DNA of 64,000 nucleotides from a virus (taxonomy: Duplodnaviria > Caudoviricetes): the IMG/VR virus record IMGVR_UViG_3300028533_000217, positions 1 through 64,000 of that record, one strand, 5' to 3'. The first letter of the stretch is position 1, and every line of letters starts with the position of its first letter. The notes below the pieces were generated by a model. The model made no database searches. It saw only the letters and a list, made by a program, of their open reading frames with translations, and was not told the DNA's origin. The position numbers and the translations under genes are program-made. Shown here one piece after another: positions 966 to 36,592 of the stretch.

Positions 966-1787
966 CTACTCTTTGGCTGAAAATAATAATTCATTATTTA
1001 CCATTTCAACTTTAAATTTTTTACCATTACCATCCAATAGTTTGAATTCAGTTACAGATACTTCCGAGTCTGTAACTTCATAATACAGTTCATCATCGAC
1101 CATATAAAATTTATAACTATTTCCGTTTACAATATCTTTAATATATGCAGCATTTTTAGAACTGTTATATGATGTTTCGAATATACAAATATCATCACCA
1201 ACAACACCAATTTCATATTTAATTCCATTGTTGTTTATTAGAACAAATCTATCAGTTACCCCTACAGTTTCTCTAACTTCTAATATTATTCTATCTCCAG
1301 GATTGAATGGTTTATTAAAAAATATTTGATTATTCTTTACAGTAAAGTCGTAATTATTAGCATAACGCTTTTTACCATGATAAATTATATATGTAGAATT
1401 TTCATATTTAGTTTCGAGGTTAGACGTAATTTGATATATTGTTTCTTCGGTTATAACATGAACCTCTTCTTTAATCTTAAAACTATTTACGGATCTTACC
1501 TCTTTATCATAAATATCCAATACATATTCCCATTCATTGAATAAAAACACATCAGAACTTCTATCAACAATACAACGATAAATGTTATGAATATTATTTT
1601 CTTGTAAATATACAATGTCGTTTTTATTATATATGTTACCAACTTGATACTGGTCTACATCTTGTAAATTATTTATGATTAAATCATACAGAAATCTCAA
1701 TAAATTATCGTTTTGTAATTTTTTCAAATTTGTCTGTATTAATTGTATATTCAAAAGAAAACACCTCCTTTTACAGTAATAATTCAT
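966..1787 (-). CDS. Putative virion protein with CBM5/12-like module
   Basis: YQVGNIYNKNDIVY..NIYRC..NEW; paralogous N-terminus; AACA-N6-TA promoter upstream; true start probably ~30 nt downstream of the ORF start. Confidence 0.6.
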   Translation of the reverse strand: MNYYCKRRCFLLNIQLIQTNLKKLQNDNLLRFLYDLIINNLQDVDQYQVGNIYNKNDIVYLQENNIHNIYRCIVDRSSDVFLFNEWEYVLDIYDKEVRSVNSFKIKEEVHVITEETIYQITSNLETKYENSTYIIYHGKKRYANNYDFTVKNNQIFFNKPFNPGDRIILEVRETVGVTDRFVLINNNGIKYEIGVVGDDICIFETSYNSSKNAAYIKDIVNGNSYKFYMVDDELYYEVTDSEVSVTEFKLLDGNGKKFKVEMVNNELLFSAKE

Positions 1788-1855
1788 CTATTAAGAAATT
1801 GTTTCCGATTAATAATTATGAATAATAATGAAAATAAAACATGAAGATAGAATCT

Positions 1856-2020
1856 TCATGTTTTATTTATTCTAATTGAAAGATGTGTTGAATTAGCATT
1901 CTTAACTAAATCACCGCAGAATGGGCATCCAACATTTAATTCAAAATTTTTATAATAAGAAGGTTTTACATTTAACAATATCTCATTAATTAATTCTTGT
2001 TTAAATTCTTTATTATCCAT
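1856..2020 (-). pseudogene. Truncated duplicate of the primase N-terminus (54 aa)
   Basis: MDNKEFKQELINEILLNVKPSYYKNFELNVGCPFCGDLVKNANSTHLSIRINKT*, nearly identical to the start of 3328..4347. Confidence 0.85.
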
Positions 2021-2175
2021 ATAATTACCTATTTTATTATTGTTAGAGAAAATATAGAATAATAGACTCAGTCTATTATTCTATATTTTGTATATATTAA
2101 AAATTATTGTAAACTAAGGTCTGTTAAATACGTGTTATGGAAAGAAGATGCGTAAGAACCACTTTCACTATTTTT
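1865..2175. repeat. Diverged direct duplicate of 4192..4503
   Basis: Colinear near-identity at ~2328 bp offset; includes primase 5' end, 41-bp palindrome and 3' end of the 571-aa gene. Confidence 0.9.
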
Positions 2176-2271
2176 CTGTATTTTCGTAAGATTAGCTATT
2201 ATCGAATCAACTTATTCACTTTGAGTTATAAATAATTAGTGAAGAGTGTTTGAACTCCTCCTTCTATATTC

Positions 2272-3201
2272 TTAATATGAAAATCCTTTAGGTATAGAAA
2301 CGAATGAAGTTTTATCAGTAGTATTATTTAATCCTAATTGTCCTTTACTATTTAAACCACAGGAATATATACTACCATCATTCTTTAATATAAATGTATG
2401 ACTACCACCACAAGCTATTTGATTTACATCGTTATTTATATTGGTAGTTACTTTAGTAAATGTAGTTCTAGTATCAGTATCATTTAATCCTAATTCTCCA
2501 TATTCATTATAACCACAAGACCATACACTACCATCGTTCTTTATTATAAATGTAAAACCAAAACCACAAGATATTTGTTTAACATCATTATTTATATTAG
2601 TAGTTACTTGTGTAAATATAGTTCTATTAGTAGTATTACCTAATCCTAATTCTCCATTAGTATTTAAACCACAAGCCCATAAACTACCATCATTTTTTAA
2701 TATAAATACATGGTCAGAACCACAAGATATTTGTTTAATATCTCCTATCTCTATCTGACTATCATCTAATAGTTGTATTAAATCATCTACTGACATTTCA
2801 CTAGTAGCTTCATTATAACCATCTTCTAACATCATATTGTATAATACTTCTTTAGCATCTGTTTCATTATCACTACTAGATCTTAATGCTAGTATAGCTT
2901 CACTCATAGCTTTAAATGTAGAGTTAGAGTTAATTAACTCATTGCCAATAGCCGATGCTATGAGTTGTTTACCGTTATTGGCACTTTGAAAAAGTTCATT
3001 TATAGCTCCTACTAATGATTTATCATTAGTTAATAGACTATCATCTGTTAAAGCTTCTTGTAGATCTTCTTTAGTAGTATAGTTACTTAGGTCTACATCT
3101 ACATTTCCTATAGCTTCTTGAAGATCATCTTGAAATACTATATCTTCTATTAGATTTTCATTTAATTCTTGTTTTGTTATTTTACCACGCATGTTTATCA
3201 C
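2272..3201 (-). CDS. Tail fibre/receptor-binding-like protein with RCC1 repeats
   Basis: N-terminal LVGAINELFQSANNGK motif; three ~52-aa RCC1 repeats (ISCG.H.FILKNDGS.W.CG.N..G.LGL). Confidence 0.8.
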   Translation of the reverse strand: MINMRGKITKQELNENLIEDIVFQDDLQEAIGNVDVDLSNYTTKEDLQEALTDDSLLTNDKSLVGAINELFQSANNGKQLIASAIGNELINSNSTFKAMSEAILALRSSSDNETDAKEVLYNMMLEDGYNEATSEMSVDDLIQLLDDSQIEIGDIKQISCGSDHVFILKNDGSLWACGLNTNGELGLGNTTNRTIFTQVTTNINNDVKQISCGFGFTFIIKNDGSVWSCGYNEYGELGLNDTDTRTTFTKVTTNINNDVNQIACGGSHTFILKNDGSIYSCGLNSKGQLGLNNTTDKTSFVSIPKGFSY

Positions 3202-3327
3202 TCCTTTTACAATAATTGATTTATAGAATTGTTTCCATATAACAATTTAGCAGAAAGACAATTAAATAAATATATGGTCTCGGAATCAAATTAAAAATAT
3301 TGATATAGATAGAATTGACTATCTATA

Positions 3328-4347
3328 TCAATATGTTTTTATTTCTTTTAATTTAATTTCTTTTACAGGCACTCCATAATCTTTACCTATATCATTATAA
3401 AATAATCTAATGTCGTTTACGAATGGACTTATTATCTCTATCATCTTTTTGTAATAATCAGGTGCTCTATCTGCATCAGAAAATATATTAACATTAACAT
3501 CACAGAGTAATCCTTGTTCTAATATATATTTTATCACATTTAAATATCCCGACCCGTTTATAGCCGCATATATCGTGTTATACTCATACTTATCCATTAA
3601 ATGATAATATATACCTAATATATCAAATACACCTTCTGCTATATTTATAGTTTTAATTTCATTATTAAACGGATCTATTTTATTAGGCATTATATAAAAT
3701 TTACCTGTCGTATCTAAATCCCTTTTTATTTTATAAATATAATATCTCTTATGATTTCCTGTCATATCTCTAAAGTTTATAAAATCATTTCTTGCTGATA
3801 AGAAACCAACGTGGTCAGTTTGTAATGCTTTAAGATGGTCAGCACTTCCATACAATTTATCTATATGATTATATTTTAATAATCCTAGAAAATCATAAAC
3901 TATTTTCTTTTTATGAAGTTCCTCAACATCAGCATTTATTCCTAATCTATTTTCAATATATTTATGTTTTTGTATAACTGAATCAGTTATCTTTAATTCG
4001 GGAAATCTAATATTCAATCCTTTCTTATTAAATGTTAATCCATGTTTCTTACAAGATAATCTATTGTATCTTTCTATATTAACAGAATTTGAATTTGAAT
4101 AAACACCTATCATTGTTAAAGTTGTTCCATTGAATATTCCTGTAGAATTACATCTAAGACATCTAAATACTAATGGATGGTCATCATCTGGATTTATTCT
4201 AATTGAAAGATGTGCTGAGTTAGCATTCTTAACAGAATCTCCACAGAATGGACATCTGACATTAAGTTCATAATTTTTATAATATGATGGTTTTATATTT
4301 AACAATATCTCATTAATTAATTCTTGTTTAAATTCTTTATTATCCAT
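3328..4347 (-). CDS. DNA primase (Zn finger + TOPRIM)
   Basis: CPFCGD..H..CLRC zinc finger; AEGVFD and FSDAD TOPRIM motifs; KDYG. Confidence 0.85.
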   Translation of the reverse strand: MDNKEFKQELINEILLNIKPSYYKNYELNVRCPFCGDSVKNANSAHLSIRINPDDDHPLVFRCLRCNSTGIFNGTTLTMIGVYSNSNSVNIERYNRLSCKKHGLTFNKKGLNIRFPELKITDSVIQKHKYIENRLGINADVEELHKKKIVYDFLGLLKYNHIDKLYGSADHLKALQTDHVGFLSARNDFINFRDMTGNHKRYYIYKIKRDLDTTGKFYIMPNKIDPFNNEIKTINIAEGVFDILGIYYHLMDKYEYNTIYAAINGSGYLNVIKYILEQGLLCDVNVNIFSDADRAPDYYKKMIEIISPFVNDIRLFYNDIGKDYGVPVKEIKLKEIKTY

Positions 4348-26289: not shown

Positions 26290-28719
26290 ATGAGTAAAAA
26301 TAGTAGAAAATTTGTTGAAGAAGAAATGTATGTTGCTGAAAATGAATTAGATAAAATACGTATATCTCCATTAATGTATATATCAAGAATCGGGTCATTA
26401 GGAGCTATTCATTTAGCTAAAGAATGTATTAATAACAGTATAGATGAATGTTTAAACATAAATTCACCAGGGGAAAATATATATTTGTATCTAAACGAGG
26501 ATACAAATACGTTTATTACGGAAGATGATGGTAGAGGATTACCATTTGATAGAATGTTAGACGCGTGTACAAAAATACAATCAAGTACCAAATTTAATAG
26601 GACTTCTAATCAGAAGTCTGCAGGGCAAAACGGTCTGGGCATAAAGGCTACAAACGCCCTTTCTGAATATTTCAAACTTGAAGTATACAAATTAGGTGAA
26701 TATGCAGTAGTTGAATTTAAGGACGGAGTTCAGGTACAAGATGGTAAAGTTAAACCTTGTAAAGACAAAAAAAGACATGGTACAATAGTGACATTTAAAC
26801 CTAGTGAAAAATATATGGGTAAATGTCAAATGAAAGGTGAAGACATCTTATTCTGGTTAAATAATATAAAACATTTCTTAGATAAAAATATTACAATAGA
26901 ACTTGAAATAGAAAAGAAAGGTAAAATAACAAGATATGAATTTAACAGAAGTAAAAATGGTATAGGAGATCTAGTATGTGAAATATCTCCTAAAAATCAC
27001 ACGCCTATATATACAGGAATAGGAACTACAAAAATAGATGAAGAAATAAGAATAGTTAAATCAGGAGGTAAAGTTGATAACCAAATATTAAAGAGAGATG
27101 TTGATTTAGAATTTGCATTTGCGCTAAATGTTGATATGTTAGAAATGAAAACACGATCATTCTGTAACTTCGTGCATACGGTAGATGAAGGTGACCATAC
27201 AAATGCAGTAGTTACAGCAATCTGTGAATATTTAAGTAGAAAAACTAAAGATACGTTAACAGAGAAAGAAAAAGAAAAATTTAATATATTATATAATGAT
27301 ATAACAAACTCTTTAGTATTAGCATTAACAGTAAGTACAAGTATGGACCCTGGATTTACAGGACAGACCAAAGAGAAGATAGAAAATAATAAAATGATTA
27401 AACCTTTAAAAGAAATAGTACGTTCTCAATTAACAGTATTCTTTGAGAATAATCCTAAAGAACTTAAATCATATACAAATATAATTAAAGCAAATGCTAA
27501 AGCTAGATATGAATCTACAAAAGCAAAACAAGCAGTAATTAAAAGAGAAGTAGGAGCAGTGGCAGAACATTCTATACCAAACTATTTCCCTGCAAATAAG
27601 AAAGGTAAGAAAGATTATAGAGAATTATTTATATTTGAGGGGTTATCAGTTAAATCAAATGGTACACAAGCAAGAGATGCAGATTATCAAGCAATGTATA
27701 CAATGAGAGGTGTTCCAGGAGAAGCATATACAATGAGTAGTAATGATGTATATACAAAGAATGAAACATTTAAGAATTTAACAAGAGCAATTAATGCAGG
27801 TATAGGTGATAATTTTGATGTAAGTAAATGTAGATTTGATAAAGTAATAATAACATCAGATGCTGACGTTGACGGTTTCTTTATCTTCTCATTATTAGGT
27901 GGGTTCTTCTTAAAACATATGACAGATTTAATATATGATGGAAGATTATATTTATCAGTTCCTCCATTATACAAAATTAAAGATAAGAAAACTCCGTTCG
28001 TAACAGATAAAGAACAATATCAAACAGTATATTTTAGAAATGTTTTAGATAAGTATATTATACAAGAAGATGGAGGTAAAGAATTAAGTAGAAGAGAATT
28101 CTTAGAGTTCTTAAAATTAAATCAATATTATTTAGATGAGCTTATAAGATGTAGTAATCATTATAGTGCAAATCCAACATTAATAGAATATGTTATAAAA
28201 TATAAAGATGAAAAGAACTTTAAGAAAAATATGGCTAAGAAATTCCCAGAGATAAAAATTGAATCTGACAAAGACAATAAGATGAATACGATAATAGAGG
28301 GAATATATGAAGGGGCTTATCAAATATTTACAATAGATAATCTATTTGATAAGAAAACGCAAGATTTAAGAGATTTAATGGATAAGAATGATAGTATGTA
28401 TTATAAAGTAATTGAAAAATATAAGGACGGTAGAGAGTTTAGAGGTAAATTAAGTATAGGAGAATTCTTAGAGTTAACAAATAAATTACAACCAGGAATA
28501 GAGCTAAGATACAAAGGATTAGGGGAATTAAGTTCGGATGATATGTGGATGAATGTAATGAATCCAGAGAAAAGAACGCTAATACAATTAACAGTTAGCG
28601 ATATAAAAGAAGCATGTAAAATGTATGATACGCTTCACGGGAAAGGAAAATCTAATTCAGATAATAGAAGAGAAATGACAGAAGCGTTTGAAATCCGTAA
28701 GGATATGTTAGATAACTAG
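26290..28719 (+). CDS. gyrB: Type II topoisomerase subunit B (gyrase B-like)
   Basis: ECINNSIDE, DDGRGLP, GQNGLGIKATNALS, FEGLS, SDADVDG, RYKGLGE. Confidence 0.92.
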   Translation: MSKNSRKFVEEEMYVAENELDKIRISPLMYISRIGSLGAIHLAKECINNSIDECLNINSPGENIYLYLNEDTNTFITEDDGRGLPFDRMLDACTKIQSSTKFNRTSNQKSAGQNGLGIKATNALSEYFKLEVYKLGEYAVVEFKDGVQVQDGKVKPCKDKKRHGTIVTFKPSEKYMGKCQMKGEDILFWLNNIKHFLDKNITIELEIEKKGKITRYEFNRSKNGIGDLVCEISPKNHTPIYTGIGTTKIDEEIRIVKSGGKVDNQILKRDVDLEFAFALNVDMLEMKTRSFCNFVHTVDEGDHTNAVVTAICEYLSRKTKDTLTEKEKEKFNILYNDITNSLVLALTVSTSMDPGFTGQTKEKIENNKMIKPLKEIVRSQLTVFFENNPKELKSYTNIIKANAKARYESTKAKQAVIKREVGAVAEHSIPNYFPANKKGKKDYRELFIFEGLSVKSNGTQARDADYQAMYTMRGVPGEAYTMSSNDVYTKNETFKNLTRAINAGIGDNFDVSKCRFDKVIITSDADVDGFFIFSLLGGFFLKHMTDLIYDGRLYLSVPPLYKIKDKKTPFVTDKEQYQTVYFRNVLDKYIIQEDGGKELSRREFLEFLKLNQYYLDELIRCSNHYSANPTLIEYVIKYKDEKNFKKNMAKKFPEIKIESDKDNKMNTIIEGIYEGAYQIFTIDNLFDKKTQDLRDLMDKNDSMYYKVIEKYKDGREFRGKLSIGEFLELTNKLQPGIELRYKGLGELSSDDMWMNVMNPEKRTLIQLTVSDIKEACKMYDTLHGKGKSNSDNRREMTEAFEIRKDMLDN

Positions 28720-28755
28720 GAGTGTGAAAGCACTCCTATATAGGAGGTTGATAAT

Positions 28756-29511
28756 ATGAATAGAATAGGTGAAGAGAGATATAACAATAATAAATCATTA
28801 ATGAAAATAACCGATTATAGAAATTCTAAAGATGTTGATGTATATTTTCCAGATTACAATTGGACCTATTATCATGCTCGTTATGATAATTTTACACGTG
28901 GTAAAATAAAATGTCCTTATGAACCAAGATATTATAATGTTGGGTATTTAGGTGAAGGTGAGTATAATATTAAAGAGAACGGTGAATGTACAAAATGTTA
29001 TCGAACTTGGCACCATATGCTACAACGTTGTTATGATATAGATCATTTATACAAAAACCCGACATATGAAGATTGTTTCGTGTGTGAAGAATGGCTAAAT
29101 TTTCAAAATTTCGCAGATTGGTTTTATAATAATTATTATGAAGTGAATGATGAATTGATGTGCTTGGATAAGGATATTCTTTATAAAGGTAATTTAATAT
29201 ATTCACCAGAAACATGTGTATTTGTAACACAAAAAATAAATTCCTTATTTGTAAAATCAGATGCTATAAGAGGAGAGTTACCTATAGGTGTGCAAATTGA
29301 CAAAAGACGTAATACGTATGGAGCATATTGTAATAATGGGTATGGTGAAAGAACTTATTTAGGATCATTTGACACACCTGAAAAAGCTTTTTATATGTAT
29401 AAAAAATACAAAGAGGAGCTTATTAAAAATATAGCTGAAGAATATAAATCTTATATACCTATTGAATTATACAACGCTTTAAACAATTATAAAGTAGAAA
29501 TTAATGATTAA
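28756..29511 (+). CDS. Free-standing HNH-type homing endonuclease-like protein between gyrB and gyrA
   Basis: W..MLQRCY, VCEEWLNFQNF, CLDKDIL.KGN.IYSPETCVFV, AP2-like C-terminus (YLGSFDTPEKAF). Confidence 0.7.
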   Translation: MNRIGEERYNNNKSLMKITDYRNSKDVDVYFPDYNWTYYHARYDNFTRGKIKCPYEPRYYNVGYLGEGEYNIKENGECTKCYRTWHHMLQRCYDIDHLYKNPTYEDCFVCEEWLNFQNFADWFYNNYYEVNDELMCLDKDILYKGNLIYSPETCVFVTQKINSLFVKSDAIRGELPIGVQIDKRRNTYGAYCNNGYGERTYLGSFDTPEKAFYMYKKYKEELIKNIAEEYKSYIPIELYNALNNYKVEIND

Positions 29512-29524
29512 GGAGGTATTTTAT

Positions 29525-31922
29525 ATGAAAAAAGAAGATTTTAAATTTAATGAGAATATATCAGTTATGGAATTAAAAGATAAGGCTGCTGATGCTATAA
29601 GTATCTATGCACCTAATAAAAATGTTTATAGACATATACCTTTTATGAATGATGGTTTGCTTCCATCTGAGCGTCGTGTGTTATATGCAATGTATAAGGA
29701 TGTTAAAGCGTTTCCTTGGCAGAATTATAAGAAGTTAGGATTGACAATAGGTAGTACGATAGTGTATCATCCACACGGTGAAACAAACGTGTATCAGACA
29801 GCTGTTAAACTAGCTCAGCCATGGAAAAATGCTTGTGTGTTTATAGATGGTTCGGGTTCTTATGGTAATGAAGTTGGTGATGGTGCAGCCGCTTGGAGGT
29901 ATCTTTGAGGCGAGATTATCTAAGTTTGCATATAAATGTTATTTTGAAGATTTTAGTGAAGATTTAGTAGATATGAAAGCAGGATATATAGAAGGTATAT
30001 TTGAACCAGAATATCTACCAGCAAGATATCCAGTAGCATTAACTAAATCTATAAAAGCTATAGGATATGGAATGTATTCTCAATTCCCTAACTATAACTT
30101 TAAAGAGTTGGTTGAATTCACATTAAAATTAATGGATAATCCAGATTATGATAAAGTTATATATCCAGATATTCCAAATAATTGTGAGATAATAGATGAC
30201 GGACAATTTGATGAAATAAGAAGAACTGGTAAGGGTAACTTTAGAATGAAGTCTAAAGTAAATATAGATTATGAACAAAACAAAATAGAAGTATTATCAG
30301 TACCACAAGGAACTGATTTAGCATCTATAACTGAAAAGATAGTTGAAATGGGTAAATCAGGAGAATTGATAGGGTTTGTGGATGTTCATAATATGAACGA
30401 TAAACGAAATAATAAAGGTAAGAAAAAGAATAAAGAAGGTAAATTAAGTATAGAAGTATTATTTAAACCAGGAACTGATTTAAATAAGAACCTAGATTTA
30501 TTATATAAGAAAACTACAATGGTAATGACAGCAAGTTATGATTTAACATTAGTTGATGATTATAAGTTAAGACATTATACAGTAAGAACATTATTATTAG
30601 ATTGGATATCATTTAGAAGAGATATTAAAAGAAGACAGATAAATAAAAAGATAACTAAGAAGATGGAAAGAAAACATATATTAGAAGTCTTATTATTTAT
30701 AACAAATGCTAAGAATGGTCAAACTACAATTAAGTTAGCAACTCAATCTGAAGATGCAGTTGAATTCCAAAGTAAATTAGTATCTACATTTGGTATATCA
30801 ACATTACAAGCTAAGAATATAGCTAAGATGAGTGTAACAGCATTTAATAAAGAATCTCATAGAAAATATCAAATAGAATTAGATGAGATAAACAAAGATT
30901 TAGATGAATTATTAGTAATAACAAAATCATCTAAACTTATAGACAATATAATCAAAGATGAATTAAAAGAAGGTATAGAATTATTTAGTAAACCAAGAAG
31001 TAGTGATATAGTGACATTTGGTGATAGCAAGTTTATACCTGATTCAGATCATAAAATAGTAATAACTAAAAATGGTAGAATAAAGAAATTAGATGCAAAT
31101 GTAAATGGAATAGGTCAATTAGAAGATGGTGATAAAGGTAAAGATTTATTCCCAGTAAACAATAGAGGAAGTATAATGGTGTTTGATAAGAGAGGTAACA
31201 TGAGTAATATAGATGTAAATGATATAAGTTCAACTCCAATAGATAGTGGAGGGGTTGATATATCAACAATGGTTACAGTGGCAGGAAATATAGTTGCATC
31301 ATTTCCTAAACCACCTGAAACTATAAAAGATGAAGAGGTATTCTTAGTATTAACAACTAAGAAAGGATTAAGTAAAAAATTAAGTTATAAGAATTTCCAA
31401 AAGATAAGAGGAACGGTTACAGCTATTAAATTAGCAGAAGACGATGAATTAGTTTCTGTAGATGTATTGTTCGGAAACAAAGATATTATAATTTATACAA
31501 AAGAAGGTGGAGCTATACGTATAAGTGTGGATGATATAAGAGAATGTGGTAGAGCCGCATATGGTATAGCTACAATAGATTTAGCAGGAGATGATGAAGT
31601 TGCAGGAACTGCTATAATAAATAAAAATCATAAATATATAGTAGTTGCAACTAACAAAGGTAAAATGAAATTATGTAATTTAAATCAATTTAAAACAATG
31701 AAAAGAAAATCACCAACATTACAATTAACAAGATTGGAAAAGAACGAAATTGTTGTATGTGTTAAGTCAGTTAAAATGACAAATAAGATAATGGTTTATA
31801 CACAATTCTCAGAATATGAATTTAAAGTAAAAGAAATACCAGAATTAACTAGAAACCATCCTTGTAAGAAAATGGTTCCTCTAAAGAATAAAGATGTTGT
31901 AATGGAAGTTGTTGTAGAATAG
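29525..31922 (+). CDS. gyrA: Type II topoisomerase subunit A (gyrase A-like), ~798 aa, requires a +1 frameshift at 29903..29908
   Basis: DGLLPSERR, YHPHGE, AAWRY|LEARL catalytic region split across frames; C-terminal beta-pinwheel repeats; AAGGAGG RBS before ATG 29525. Confidence 0.88.
29895..29909 (+). other. Candidate programmed +1 ribosomal frameshift cassette (prfB type)
   Basis: GGAGG TAT CTT TGA G: internal SD, 3-nt spacer, CUU-UGA shift site. Confidence 0.7.
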
Positions 31923-32002
31923 ATACTGTAAGGTATCTATTCTTTTTTTGTATTGATTAAAACAACCTAATAAGATACTTTAATTGTGATAGAGGTGATA
32001 AA

Positions 32003-32390
32003 ATGATTATTGATAGATTGTATGATGTATACCCTAGTACAATTTTAGAAGGATTTAAAAAGAATCGTGACTATCAAAAAGAAGATATGGTGAGACAAGA
32101 TTTTTTTCAGATACTTAAAACAACAATATCCTGATTTTGATAAAACCGAATTTACTAAAGCAAAGACAAAAGAAGAGGCGAAAGCAGTTGCTGATAAATA
32201 TCAAGATGATTTTAAAAGGTTTGTTAAGAAACAACCTAAAAGGTTCATACCGTTAGCTGTACATTTTGGTATTGTTGCTGCTAATATTGTTGGAGTTATT
32301 CCTGATAATGTTGCGTCTAAGTTATATAAAATATTATTAGTTGATGATGTTATCTATTATGGAAAAGAATTAAAGAAAGGGTTGAAGTAA
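32003..32390 (+). pseudogene. Frameshifted paralog of 32394..32846 (extra T in T7 tract 32101..32107)
   Basis: Removing one T gives ..RQDFFRYLKQQYPDFDKTEFTKAKTKEEAKAVADKYQDDF.., aligning with RVSFLNYLEYKY..KAAETDKEKLEVIKKYAKDY. Confidence 0.7.
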
Positions 32391-32393
32391 AAA

Positions 32394-34822: not shown

Positions 34823-35575
34823 ATGAGTGGTGTAGAAACTAAAAAATGTATAAAATGTGGGAGAGTGTTACCTGCGACAGAAGCTTATTTTAAGTACACC
34901 AATAAAAATAAAAATAACTTTAGATCTTGGTGTAGAGATTGTGATAAAGAATATCAAAAAGCTTATAGAGAAAAAAATAGAGAGAAGAATAAAGAATATT
35001 ATAAGAAATATTATCAAGAAAATAAAGAAGAACTGCTTGAAAAAGGTAAAAAATATGTAGACGAGCATAGAGAACAATATTTAGATTATCATAGACAGTA
35101 TTATAAAGAAAACAAAGAAAGACTGGATAAAGATGCTAGAATATATAGAGAACAACATAGAGAAGAAATTGCTGAATATCATAAGAAATACCGAAAAGAA
35201 CATAGAGATGAAAAAAGAACATATTTCTTTAACCGTGCAGCTAGAGATAGATATACTAATGATGAAATAGAATTCAATAATATAACAATGGAAGAATTTC
35301 TAAACATTTATAGTTTTTTTGATAATAAATGTGCTTACAGTGGTGTTGAATTAAACGAATCAAATAGATCTATAGATCATATAATACCTTTAGAATTAGG
35401 AGGGACTAATGATTTGTGGAATTTAGTACCTTGTACAAGAGCTTATAATGCATCTAAATGTAATAAAACCTTGGAAGAATGGTATCCTAACGCTTTTTGT
35501 TATTCAGAAGAAAGACTTAATAAGATATATGAATGGATAAATCTAAATAAAGAGGGTGGGCATTATGATGAATAG
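34823..35575 (+). CDS. HNH endonuclease (free-standing, upstream of the intron-containing RNAP gene)
   Basis: CAYSG..IDHIIPL..GG.N..NLVPC..N.SK; N-terminal CxxC..CxxC; charged repeat linker. Confidence 0.85.
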   Translation: MSGVETKKCIKCGRVLPATEAYFKYTNKNKNNFRSWCRDCDKEYQKAYREKNREKNKEYYKKYYQENKEELLEKGKKYVDEHREQYLDYHRQYYKENKERLDKDARIYREQHREEIAEYHKKYRKEHRDEKRTYFFNRAARDRYTNDEIEFNNITMEEFLNIYSFFDNKCAYSGVELNESNRSIDHIIPLELGGTNDLWNLVPCTRAYNASKCNKTLEEWYPNAFCYSEERLNKIYEWINLNKEGGHYDE

Positions 35576-36592
35576 TAAAAAAAGAAAAGAGATGGAAAAT
35601 CTAATTTATGGGTTCTTTGATGCATTCGATCCAACTGGTAGGAATACGGAGTATTATAGAAACAAATTTAAAAGTATGAGCGACGCACAATTTGATAATT
35701 ATTTTAAACAATTATTTGCTCAAGATGATCCATATTTAACAGCAACTATGGTTGATTATGAGAATCCTATATTGATTGAAAATATTGAAAAAGCTGCGGA
35801 CTTTTTACAAGTTCCCCTTTTTGAAAGAGTCGTGTTACCATATGCCAGTTCGGATCCTAACAACCCAATAATCACAAAACATGAATGTTTAGTGGGGTAT
35901 TTAAATATAAAGCGTTAATTGAAGGCGTTTTTAAAACCTCTTTAATTGCTGGGAAGCCTAAGTCCTTTAAGGATATGGTAATCAGCAGCCAAGACTTCTT
36001 TTAGAAGTAAGGTTCAACGACTATCGAAAGGGTATCTATAGAGAAATACTATAGAGAGTAACCGAGTAGAGTACACTCAAGCGAGTGGAAACGGGAGGGT
36101 TCCTATATTTGGTAATAGAGTATAGGAATATGATATAGTCTAAACTTCTATAGAAATATAGAGCAGTTATAATAAGCGGTATAGTTGTAGCGAAACTGTA
36201 CGAATATAAATTTGCTTCAGCAAATGAACTTTAAAAAACTTGGGCTTTCTACAGATATTACCGATAGAAACATGATAACTGGTCAGGTTGTAGGTCATGA
36301 TAAAAACTCAAGAAACTCAGATGCAGAAACCACTTCGTTATTAACAGTTGGTGCGAATAAGTCTCTTAAAGAGTTTATGTCTATGAGAGCTGACGATATG
36401 GTTATGAAGAAAGAAATGACGCAAAAAATAATAAGAGATGGTTATGTGGCTATGGATGATTTAACTGATAAACTATCTAATAAAACAACATTAAACTCAG
36501 CAGCTGTATTCTTTATAGGAATGGGTTTAATGACTGACTTAGTAATGAATGATTATTTCTTACCAAAAGCAAACATACTGGACGAAGATTAA
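35565..36592 (+). CDS. RNA polymerase beta-subunit C-terminal fragment (probably virion RNAP); spliced join(35565..35915,36215..36592), 242 aa
   Basis: Spliced LVGYLNIKR|LQQMNFKK..RNMITGQV.G.DKNSRNSDAE aligns with beta VG.MY.LKL.H..K..T.QP.GG..RFGEME. Confidence 0.75.
35916..36214 (+). mobile_element. Group I intron (299 nt, no internal ORF)
   Basis: P1 AAAGCGU/GCGUUUU with U-G at the 5' splice site; AAUUGCUGGGAA, AUCAGCAG, UCAACGACUA, AUAUAGUC core; terminal G; P10 UGAAG/CUUCA; splicing restores frame. Confidence 0.92.

Follow-up and report, generated by a model that had tools for sequence, protein, structure and literature searches.

A probable prfB-type +1 frameshift cassette in the gyrA gene of uncultured jumbo phages and its mosaic inheritance beside a homing endonuclease

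To our knowledge, the +1 frameshift at CUU_UGA stimulated by a Shine-Dalgarno (SD) element has been treated as essentially private to prfB, the gene for release factor 2 (RF2). The prfB cassette comprises a CUU_U shift site, a UGA stop codon and an SD-like element, including the variant GG_AGG, that lies 3 nt upstream with UAU in between (PMC5009743), and the 2016 review by Atkins et al. describes the SD-stimulated CUU_UGA shift only in the RF2 gene (PMC5009743). A cassette of the same design is found in the gyrA gene of an uncultured AT-rich jumbo phage, within the first 64 kb (the window, which is the whole stretch analysed) of the 98-kb IMG/VR virus record IMGVR_UViG_3300028533_000217, whose completeness is put at 47% by CheckV. 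With a probability of roughly 0.88, it represents a genuine programmed +1 ribosomal frameshift of the prfB type, and, as far as the sequence can tell, this frameshift is required for the full-length GyrA of the phage. A full-text literature search, with most subscription journals outside its coverage, retrieved no account of +1 frameshifting in the gyrase or topoisomerase genes of phages.

The translational bypass cassette of phage T4 mobA and gene 60 was reportedly described by Bonocora et al. in 2011. In this unit, the insert that is bypassed shields its carrier from the endonuclease and persists after the endonuclease is lost (Manning and Atkins, bioRxiv 10.1101/2022.08.31.505936; PMC5009743). 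Additionally, "corrective" or "savior-indel" frameshifting has been described for G-run mutants of the herpesvirus thymidine kinase and for mitochondrial +1 sites (PMC5009743).

The gyrA gene of the window begins with an ATG at 29525 that is preceded by the SD sequence AAGGAGG, and its frame-0 product of 127 amino acids ends in GDGAAAWRYL. Around the site, frame 0 reads GCC GCT TGG AGG TAT CTT TGA, of which the stretch GCT TGG AGG TAT CTT TGA occupies 29891-29908. When CTTT is decoded as a single Leu, the 127-codon open reading frame (ORF) is fused to a second one of 671 codons, starting with GAG at 29907 and closed by a stop codon at 31920-31922, to give a GyrA of 798 amino acids. An earlier examination of the letters alone, referred to below as the sequence-only reading, had proposed this interruption, the +1 skip and a subunit of about 798 residues, and it proved exact. 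In the 798-residue protein, Pfam recognizes the complete DNA_topoisoIV domain (PF00521, 3.3e-76) and the GyrA C-terminal repeats (PF03989, 4.1e-18), while the alignment to Mycobacterium GyrA (PDB 8s7k) runs across the junction without a gap (AAWRYLEARL vs AAMRYTEARL) and places the catalytic Tyr of the A-A-x-R-Y motif at codon 126 (Tyr126). The fused protein is likewise colinear with uninterrupted phage GyrA, with no gap across the junction. The product is a GyrA/ParC-like subunit of a type IIA topoisomerase, and gyrA is present once in a 97%-complete relative.

The site combines a CUU_U shift site, a UGA directly 3' of it, an SD-like element 3 nt 5' of the shift codon and a +1-frame ORF2 that holds the functional bulk of GyrA and is colinear with unshifted homologues. 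From shuffles, GGAGG-N3-CTTTGA would be expected 0.01 times per window, and the window contains it once. GGAGG is the usual ribosome-binding site in this phage; it lies upstream of 32/62 ORF starts, and only 25 internal sense copies exist in 50.6 kb. Two codons of the cassette are rare in the phage, AGG accounting for 4.8% of Arg codons and CTT for 10% of Leu codons. The coordinates of the cassette and of its surroundings are collected in Table 1.

Table 1. Positions of the gyrA reading frames, the frameshift elements and the neighbouring features in the window
Feature	Position	Strand	Description
gyrA ORF1, frame 0	29525..29908	+	127 codons, ending Trp-Arg-Tyr(catalytic)-Leu-stop
gyrA ORF2, +1 frame	29907..31922	+	671 codons; remaining winged-helix/tower/coiled-coil region and C-terminal beta-propeller
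Internal SD-like GGAGG	29895..29899	+	formed by Trp TGG and rare Arg AGG; GGAGGU can pair over 6 bp with the anti-SD
TAT, catalytic Tyr codon serving as 3-nt spacer	29900..29902	+	same as UAU of E. coli prfB; invariant
Shift site CTT_T with in-frame stop TGA	29903..29908	+	CTT 29903-29905, TGA 29906-29908; invariant in 23 frameshift sequences
gyrB-like topoisomerase II ATPase/Toprim subunit	26290..28719	+	809 amino acids, unsplit in the window; Pfam DNA_gyraseB, DNA_gyraseB_C, HATPase_c
Free-standing homing endonuclease, HNH and AP2	28756..29511	+	251 amino acids, between gyrB and gyrA; phrog_953 HNH endonuclease, 7e-66
Mosaic (co-conversion-like) tract, approximate	28600..29930	+	gyrB 3' end, endonuclease gene, gyrA nt 1 to about 400

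When 5.8 billion proteins were searched, matches of 686/691 amino acids at 82-97% identity appeared beside others of about 800 amino acids. Through these matches and the 127-residue N-terminal fragments, the same two-ORF split was traced in 22 further loci (L007-L015, L054, L055, L059-L068), where 127 amino acids are followed by 686, 691 or 647. The loci stem from about 20 ENA, JGI and Logan samples, for which the assembler was MEGAHIT, SPAdes or Logan, and together with the window they make up the 23 frameshift sequences. All 22 carry TGG AGG TAT CTT TGA; conservation in related phage gyrA genes was one of the checks proposed in the sequence-only reading. The frameshift alleles derive from ENA, Logan and the JGI gene index; a 24-nt site pattern had no match in IMG/VR, and the 18-mer of the site, searched in IMG/VR, JGI metagenomes and GTDB genomes, recovered prfB genes and chance matches only, with no further gyrA. 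Against GenBank phages, blastn of the gene gave no match and tblastn gave relatives of at most 32% identity only, in Firmicutes phages and gut contigs, so that no cultured relative emerged. The phage belongs to a group of uncultured jumbo phages whose complete relatives measure about 227 kb, the G+C content of the window is 27%, and the host is probably a member of the Firmicutes.

Uninterrupted gyrA genes were found in four IMG/VR relatives at 80-89% amino acid identity, and they read TAC/TTC/AGT CGT TAT CTA/CTT GAA at the corresponding position. Uninterrupted alleles have CTA GAA or CTT GAA without the extra T, and CGT is the Arg codon in all of those checked at the DNA level. Trp followed by AGG is present in every frameshift allele and Trp in none of about 110 uninterrupted homologues, which have Y, F, S, A, H, Q or G instead; the suggestion that an unusual Trp creates the internal SD is well supported by this distribution.

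Recurrence on this scale bears directly on the objection that a spurious extra T was introduced into CTTGAG of a metagenomic contig by a sequencing or assembly error. The contig is indeed a metagenome assembly and a 47%-complete record, and the sequence-only reading, which had raised the caveat itself, suspected two other +1 indels in homopolymers of the window. The same T, however, recurs in 22 other loci from about 20 samples, three assemblers and nine diverged haplotypes, each time accompanied by five further linked substitutions (TGG, AGG, CTT), and short reads are not prone to error at a run of three Ts. Comparison of the window with the 97%-complete relative (63 ORFs, 41 kb) revealed two frame changes, the gyrA site and one split with a 288-nt gap; the suspected homopolymer indels were not found there, and no further frame breaks occur in the 41 kb. 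The caveat is thereby refuted, and an error of this kind has a practically negligible probability. As for the second frame change, a 238-amino-acid protein of relative G002 matches window positions 35565-35915 and 36203-36568 in different frames, 288 nt apart, and the interruption at 35565-36568 looks like an intron rather than a frameshift.

The frameshift loci fall into nine DNA haplotypes, among which the core codons TGG AGG TAT CTT and the TGA are invariant while the flanks differ at all 16 codons before the core (108-123) and at the three codons after it. Pairwise synonymous differences (pS) in the 5' segment reach 0.50-0.75 per site, near saturation. The proposed geometry GGAGG-UAU-CUU-UGA has therefore been borne out, as it is unchanged in nine diverged haplotypes with variable synonymous sites on either side. 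The ratio of nonsynonymous to synonymous change (dN/dS) is 0.05-0.15 for ORF1 among frameshift haplotypes and 0.025-0.07 for ORF2 in pairs of frameshift alleles, including L008 vs L059, a lineage for which no uninterrupted allele is closely related over the C-terminal part. Judged by these ratios, both gyrA ORFs are under strong purifying selection. ORF2 is uninterrupted in the 14 loci and the window that are readable to the natural stop; the exception is L068, whose contig likewise extends to that stop.

Such selection speaks against regarding gyrA as a dead gene, in which an inactivating 1-nt insertion would be kept by hitch-hiking with the endonuclease or by use of the host gyrase, with no productive frameshifting. 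The frameshift alleles do travel with the endonuclease cassette, uninterrupted alleles are commoner, and L068 bears an additional nonsense codon together with a disrupted endonuclease gene, all of which speaks for this view. Against this stand the 15-nt core, invariant between flanks nearly saturated at synonymous sites, the dN/dS of 0.025-0.15 on both ORFs even in a lineage that has only frameshift alleles, and the lack of secondary lesions in all readable loci apart from L068. Furthermore, the frameshift is kept without the endonuclease in L008-L010 and L061-L062, and the exact prfB geometry, built from rare codons, would be very unlikely for a random lesion. A dead gene is accordingly quite improbable.

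Several observations nevertheless weigh against a programmed frameshift. The weak stop context of prfB is missing, since UGA is followed by G (window, L007, L011, L059, L060) or by A (L008, L061, L063, L065) and never by C; C is unavailable because the following base is the third position of a conserved Glu codon (GAG/GAA), and termination may compete more strongly at such a site. In L068, ORF2 carries an extra in-frame TAG (AAG to TAG) 253 codons past the site. Many close relatives are without the frameshift, including backbones 98% identical over the rest of gyrA, and the frameshift is therefore dispensable. Part of the purifying selection on ORF2 could also stem from linkage to uninterrupted 5' ends, because ORF2 segments recombine freely with uninterrupted alleles. 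Uninterrupted close relatives, which the sequence-only reading had named as evidence that would speak against it, thus exist (L003-L006, L056-L058), but equally close relatives carry the site, and the frameshift is not refuted by them.

In L068 (gyrA region 1067-3473), the endonuclease ORF upstream is broken into pieces of 200 and 71 amino acids, and this allele may be in decay or may have been misassembled.

Gene callers split gyrA into ORFs of 127 and 686-691 amino acids (647 in the L065 type) in all public assemblies examined, which calls for caution in annotation. The two ORFs could also be taken at face value, with a C-terminal piece, made by independent or coupled re-initiation and with GGAGG as its ribosome-binding site, assembling with the 127-residue piece into an active subunit as T4 gp39 and gp60 do. 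GGAGG is a strong SD in this phage, phages have split topoisomerase subunits, and gyrB is itself split in the relatives L008, L054 and L060. The +1 codons past GGAGG, however, are ATC TTT GAG, so that no start codon lies at a usable distance. Across the 19 contigs of the L065 haplotype, the +1 frame, which is closed at -33, contains no ATG, GTG or TTG until +66, and therefore no independent start of ORF2 is available there, yet the 22 codons between the site and +66 are conserved at the protein level. The +1-frame ATGs upstream in other haplotypes are neither conserved nor preceded by an SD. Moreover, the break falls inside a domain, one residue past the catalytic Tyr, without the added tails seen at T4-type splits (10.1101/2022.08.31.505936). 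Two separately made pieces are, on this evidence, very hard to credit.

The frame might alternatively be restored in the RNA, by transcriptional slippage or by editing that removes one U. Polymerase slippage needs about 7 or more identical bases, and the run here consists of three Ts only. Although transcriptional realignment is known in bacteria (PMC5009743), a conserved SD at exactly 3 nt and a conserved UGA make sense under ribosomal frameshifting, and polymerase slippage accounts for neither, which leaves restoration in the RNA with only a slight chance. Reading of TGA as a sense codon was rejected, as frame 0 meets a further stop 2-4 codons later (in the window, a TAA four codons on).

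By analogy with prfB, we infer the ribosomal mechanism, its efficiency and its RF2 dependence, as distinct from the anatomy, recurrence, conservation, selection and mosaic inheritance of the cassette, which are read directly from the loci. With CUU (Leu127) in the P site, UGA in the A site and the TAT codon in the E site, GGAGG(U) 3 nt upstream would pair with the anti-SD of the translating ribosome. RF2 would decode UGA slowly, and the peptidyl-tRNA-Leu would slip from CUU to UUU, after which GAG (Glu) would be read and translation would proceed for 671 codons. Ribosomes that terminate would release a presumably useless fragment of 127 amino acids, with its end one residue past the catalytic Tyr. 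Higher RF2 activity in the host should consequently mean a lower yield of GyrA.

No tRNA or release-factor gene was detected in the phage DNA searched (the 98-kb record and 78 kb of a relative). A phage-encoded tRNA or release factor driving the shift was rejected on this basis, and host tRNA-Leu, the host anti-SD and host RF2 must therefore act. A conserved RNA structure as stimulator was also rejected, because RNAalifold over 8 haplotypes around the site yielded only a weak fold (-12.9 kcal/mol) without covariation. Rfam, run over the whole window, gave no match at gathering thresholds. TGA is rare as a stop codon in this phage group, ending 2/62 ORFs of at least 100 amino acids in the window and 8/164 overall (TAG, 52), while the trinucleotide TGA equals TAG in frequency in the DNA of the group (window; L077-L082). 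Such rare usage would fit a host with slow UGA termination.

The active-site motif x-R-Y-L-E may have been pre-adapted to this form of recoding, given that AGG-UAU-CUU-(U)GAR encodes R-Y-L-E. Insertion of a single T into AGG-UAU-CUU-GAR, together with a change of the variable residue ahead of Arg to Trp, would be enough to yield the full cassette.

The gyrB-like gene, the HNH-AP2 endonuclease gene and gyrA follow one another on the + strand, and the AP2 match in the endonuclease (Pfam, E 1.3e-4) lies under the Pfam cut-off. The endonuclease gene is absent in L003, L005, L006 and L058, where the gap between gyrB and gyrA is 47 nt, and three endonuclease alleles are 58-59% identical to that of the window. 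The pair L011, with both frameshift and endonuclease, and L058, with neither, is 97-100% identical across gyrB and gyrA except for one tract of 70-83% identity, which starts about 110 nt inside the gyrB 3' end, takes in the endonuclease gene and stops shortly after the frameshift site. Counted from the gyrA ATG, the window diverges from both L007 and L056 between about -900/-1050 and +399 and is then near-identical to them. The window-type cassette (H2) spans -816..+430 in the window, whereas informative sites place the L007-type tract (H1) at -1054..+366 in L007 and -959..+391 in L011, with the frameshift site at +370..+384. The left ends of the H1 tract differ between L007 and L011, and therefore represent separate events, and the H2 and L056-type cassettes share the end position of H1. 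In L007, L011 and L055, the 5' segment of gyrA is 100% identical while the 3' parts are 88-91% identical.

From these boundaries, the mosaic tract, which takes in the last 100-200 nt of gyrB and whose right edge lies at or just beyond the frameshift site, has moved between gyrA backbones. It looks like a homing co-conversion tract with its far end at the catalytic-Tyr codons. The stretch directly downstream of the frameshift site is almost invariant in all lineages, and it may simply be the first place for recombination to resolve. In a FastTree phylogeny of the C-terminal part (671 residues), frameshift and uninterrupted alleles are intermingled and well-supported branches force at least 4 changes, while monophyly of the frameshift alleles is not rejected in the short N-terminal part. 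The alleles are read, as an unproven interpretation, as having one origin followed by recombination.

Linkage between endonuclease and frameshift is not strict, and strict linkage was rejected on two grounds. The frameshift occurs without the endonuclease in L008-L010 and L061-L062, and the endonuclease occurs without the frameshift in L056/L057. The latter carry an HNH-AP2 allele of 253 amino acids, about 88% identical to the L007 allele as estimated by eye from the alignment, next to the ordinary site TAT CGT TAT CTA GAA, where just two synonymous changes over 30 nt set it apart from naive DNA. Relatives of the endonuclease in IMG/VR amount to 24 loci (L083-L106), none of which adjoins gyrA or gyrB, and these are therefore uninformative on the choice of target. 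These HNH-AP2 genes (sample 3300045988 and others) are 50-57% identical to that of the window, and single phage contigs of about 130 kb carry 3-4 of them, which marks the family as a proliferating one of free-standing endonucleases.

What the cassette is for can be stated only with reserve. Protection against the endonuclease, as put forward in the sequence-only reading, is a tentative possibility; the idea gains support from the boundary of the mosaic tract and is weakened by L056/L057, in which a related endonuclease coexists with an ordinary uninterrupted site. In its specific form, which is equally tentative, the cassette would be the self-protection module of the mobile HNH-AP2 element, the insertion and the flanking changes destroying the target at the catalytic-Tyr codons and frameshifting restoring the protein. 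An equally tentative possibility is that an indel was tolerated, that its signals were later optimised and that it was carried by endonuclease drive. That the cassette sets or regulates expression through RF2, a tie also put forward in the sequence-only reading, is slightly less likely. If self-protection holds true, the locus would be a second, mechanistically different natural counterpart of T4 mobA/gene 60, and the output of the phage topoisomerase would be locked to the RF2 set-point of the host as a by-product.

The gyrB gene is split into pieces of about 529 and 267-301 amino acids in several relatives (L008:1-2611, L009, L054:133-933, L060:29-832, L067:1-2164, L004:1192-3938), and in L008 and L009 an HNH_3 endonuclease ORF of 194 amino acids lies between the pieces. 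This ORF is a second insertion of a homing endonuclease into the topoisomerase operon, an arrangement that recalls the T4 gene 39/60 split. On the 3' side of gyrA (window 31923-32393; L058:6398-6942; L011:5077-5149), an ORF of 148 amino acids is present in L058 and L003 and not in L011, while in L008 and L059 gyrA is followed by a gene of the glycogen-phosphorylase family encoding 796 amino acids. The region is another mosaic junction.

Compared with the known systems, the phage site is most like that of E. coli prfB (AGG GGG UAU CUU UGA C), with which it shares CUU_U, the in-frame UGA, a stop codon read by RF2 only, the SD at 3 nt upstream and the UAU; the phage SD has the GG_AGG form that is also known from prfB. 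Both genes have a short and useless ORF1, a long and essential ORF2, and conservation of the cassette at synonymous sites. The 18-mer of phage gyrA, GCTTGGAGGTATCTTTGA, is even the actual prfB site in some metagenomic bacteria. In L019, L020/L076, L023, L025, L037, L045 and L046, prfB reads GCT TGG AGG TAT CTT TGA C, with Candidatus Jacksonbacteria MHJY01000028 as an example; this stretch encodes A-W-R-Y-L-stop, and its first 18 nt are identical to the phage gyrA site. The two differ in that prfB yields RF2, whereas the phage product is a topoisomerase subunit without a closed autoregulatory loop. In prfB, C follows UGA and the site lies at about codon 26, whereas in phage gyrA G or A follows and the site lies at codon 127, beside an active-site residue. 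Unlike in prfB, the phage cassette is present in only some alleles and moves by recombination. A virus would thus use a prfB-like cassette in an unrelated essential enzyme, one codon past the active-site Tyr, which offers a natural test of the portability of the cassette and of how much the 3' C matters, as well as a possible way for phage replication to sense how active the RF2 of the host is.

Savior-indel cases resemble the phage gene in that translation makes up for an indel in the DNA of an essential gene, while the product made without the shift is of no use. They mostly involve low-level slippage without an elaborate stimulator, whereas phage gyrA has a full and conserved stimulatory cassette.

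In its genetics, the locus is closer to T4 mobA/gene 60. Both are recoding signals in a phage type II topoisomerase gene inherited with a free-standing HNH endonuclease as a mosaic unit, both units have entered several backbones, and in both the recoding signal survives loss of the endonuclease and involves an SD-like element. As in T4, the endonuclease lies beside the topoisomerase gene in some relatives and is cleanly absent in others, and the recoding element sits inside the co-inherited tract. The recoding element does not, however, occur wherever the endonuclease does, L056 and L057 being the exceptions and representing one allele without a recoding site. T4 gene 60 involves a hop of 50 nt in a GyrB-like subunit, whereas a +1 shift of 1 nt affects a GyrA-like subunit here, and the phage endonuclease is intergenic and does not split the recoded gene. 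The locus is possibly the second example, after T4 gene 60, of recoding tied to homing-endonuclease traffic in phage topoisomerase genes. Taken as a whole, it appears to be mechanistically a prfB-type cassette, although not a prfB gene, and genetically a relative in kind of T4 mobA/gene 60.

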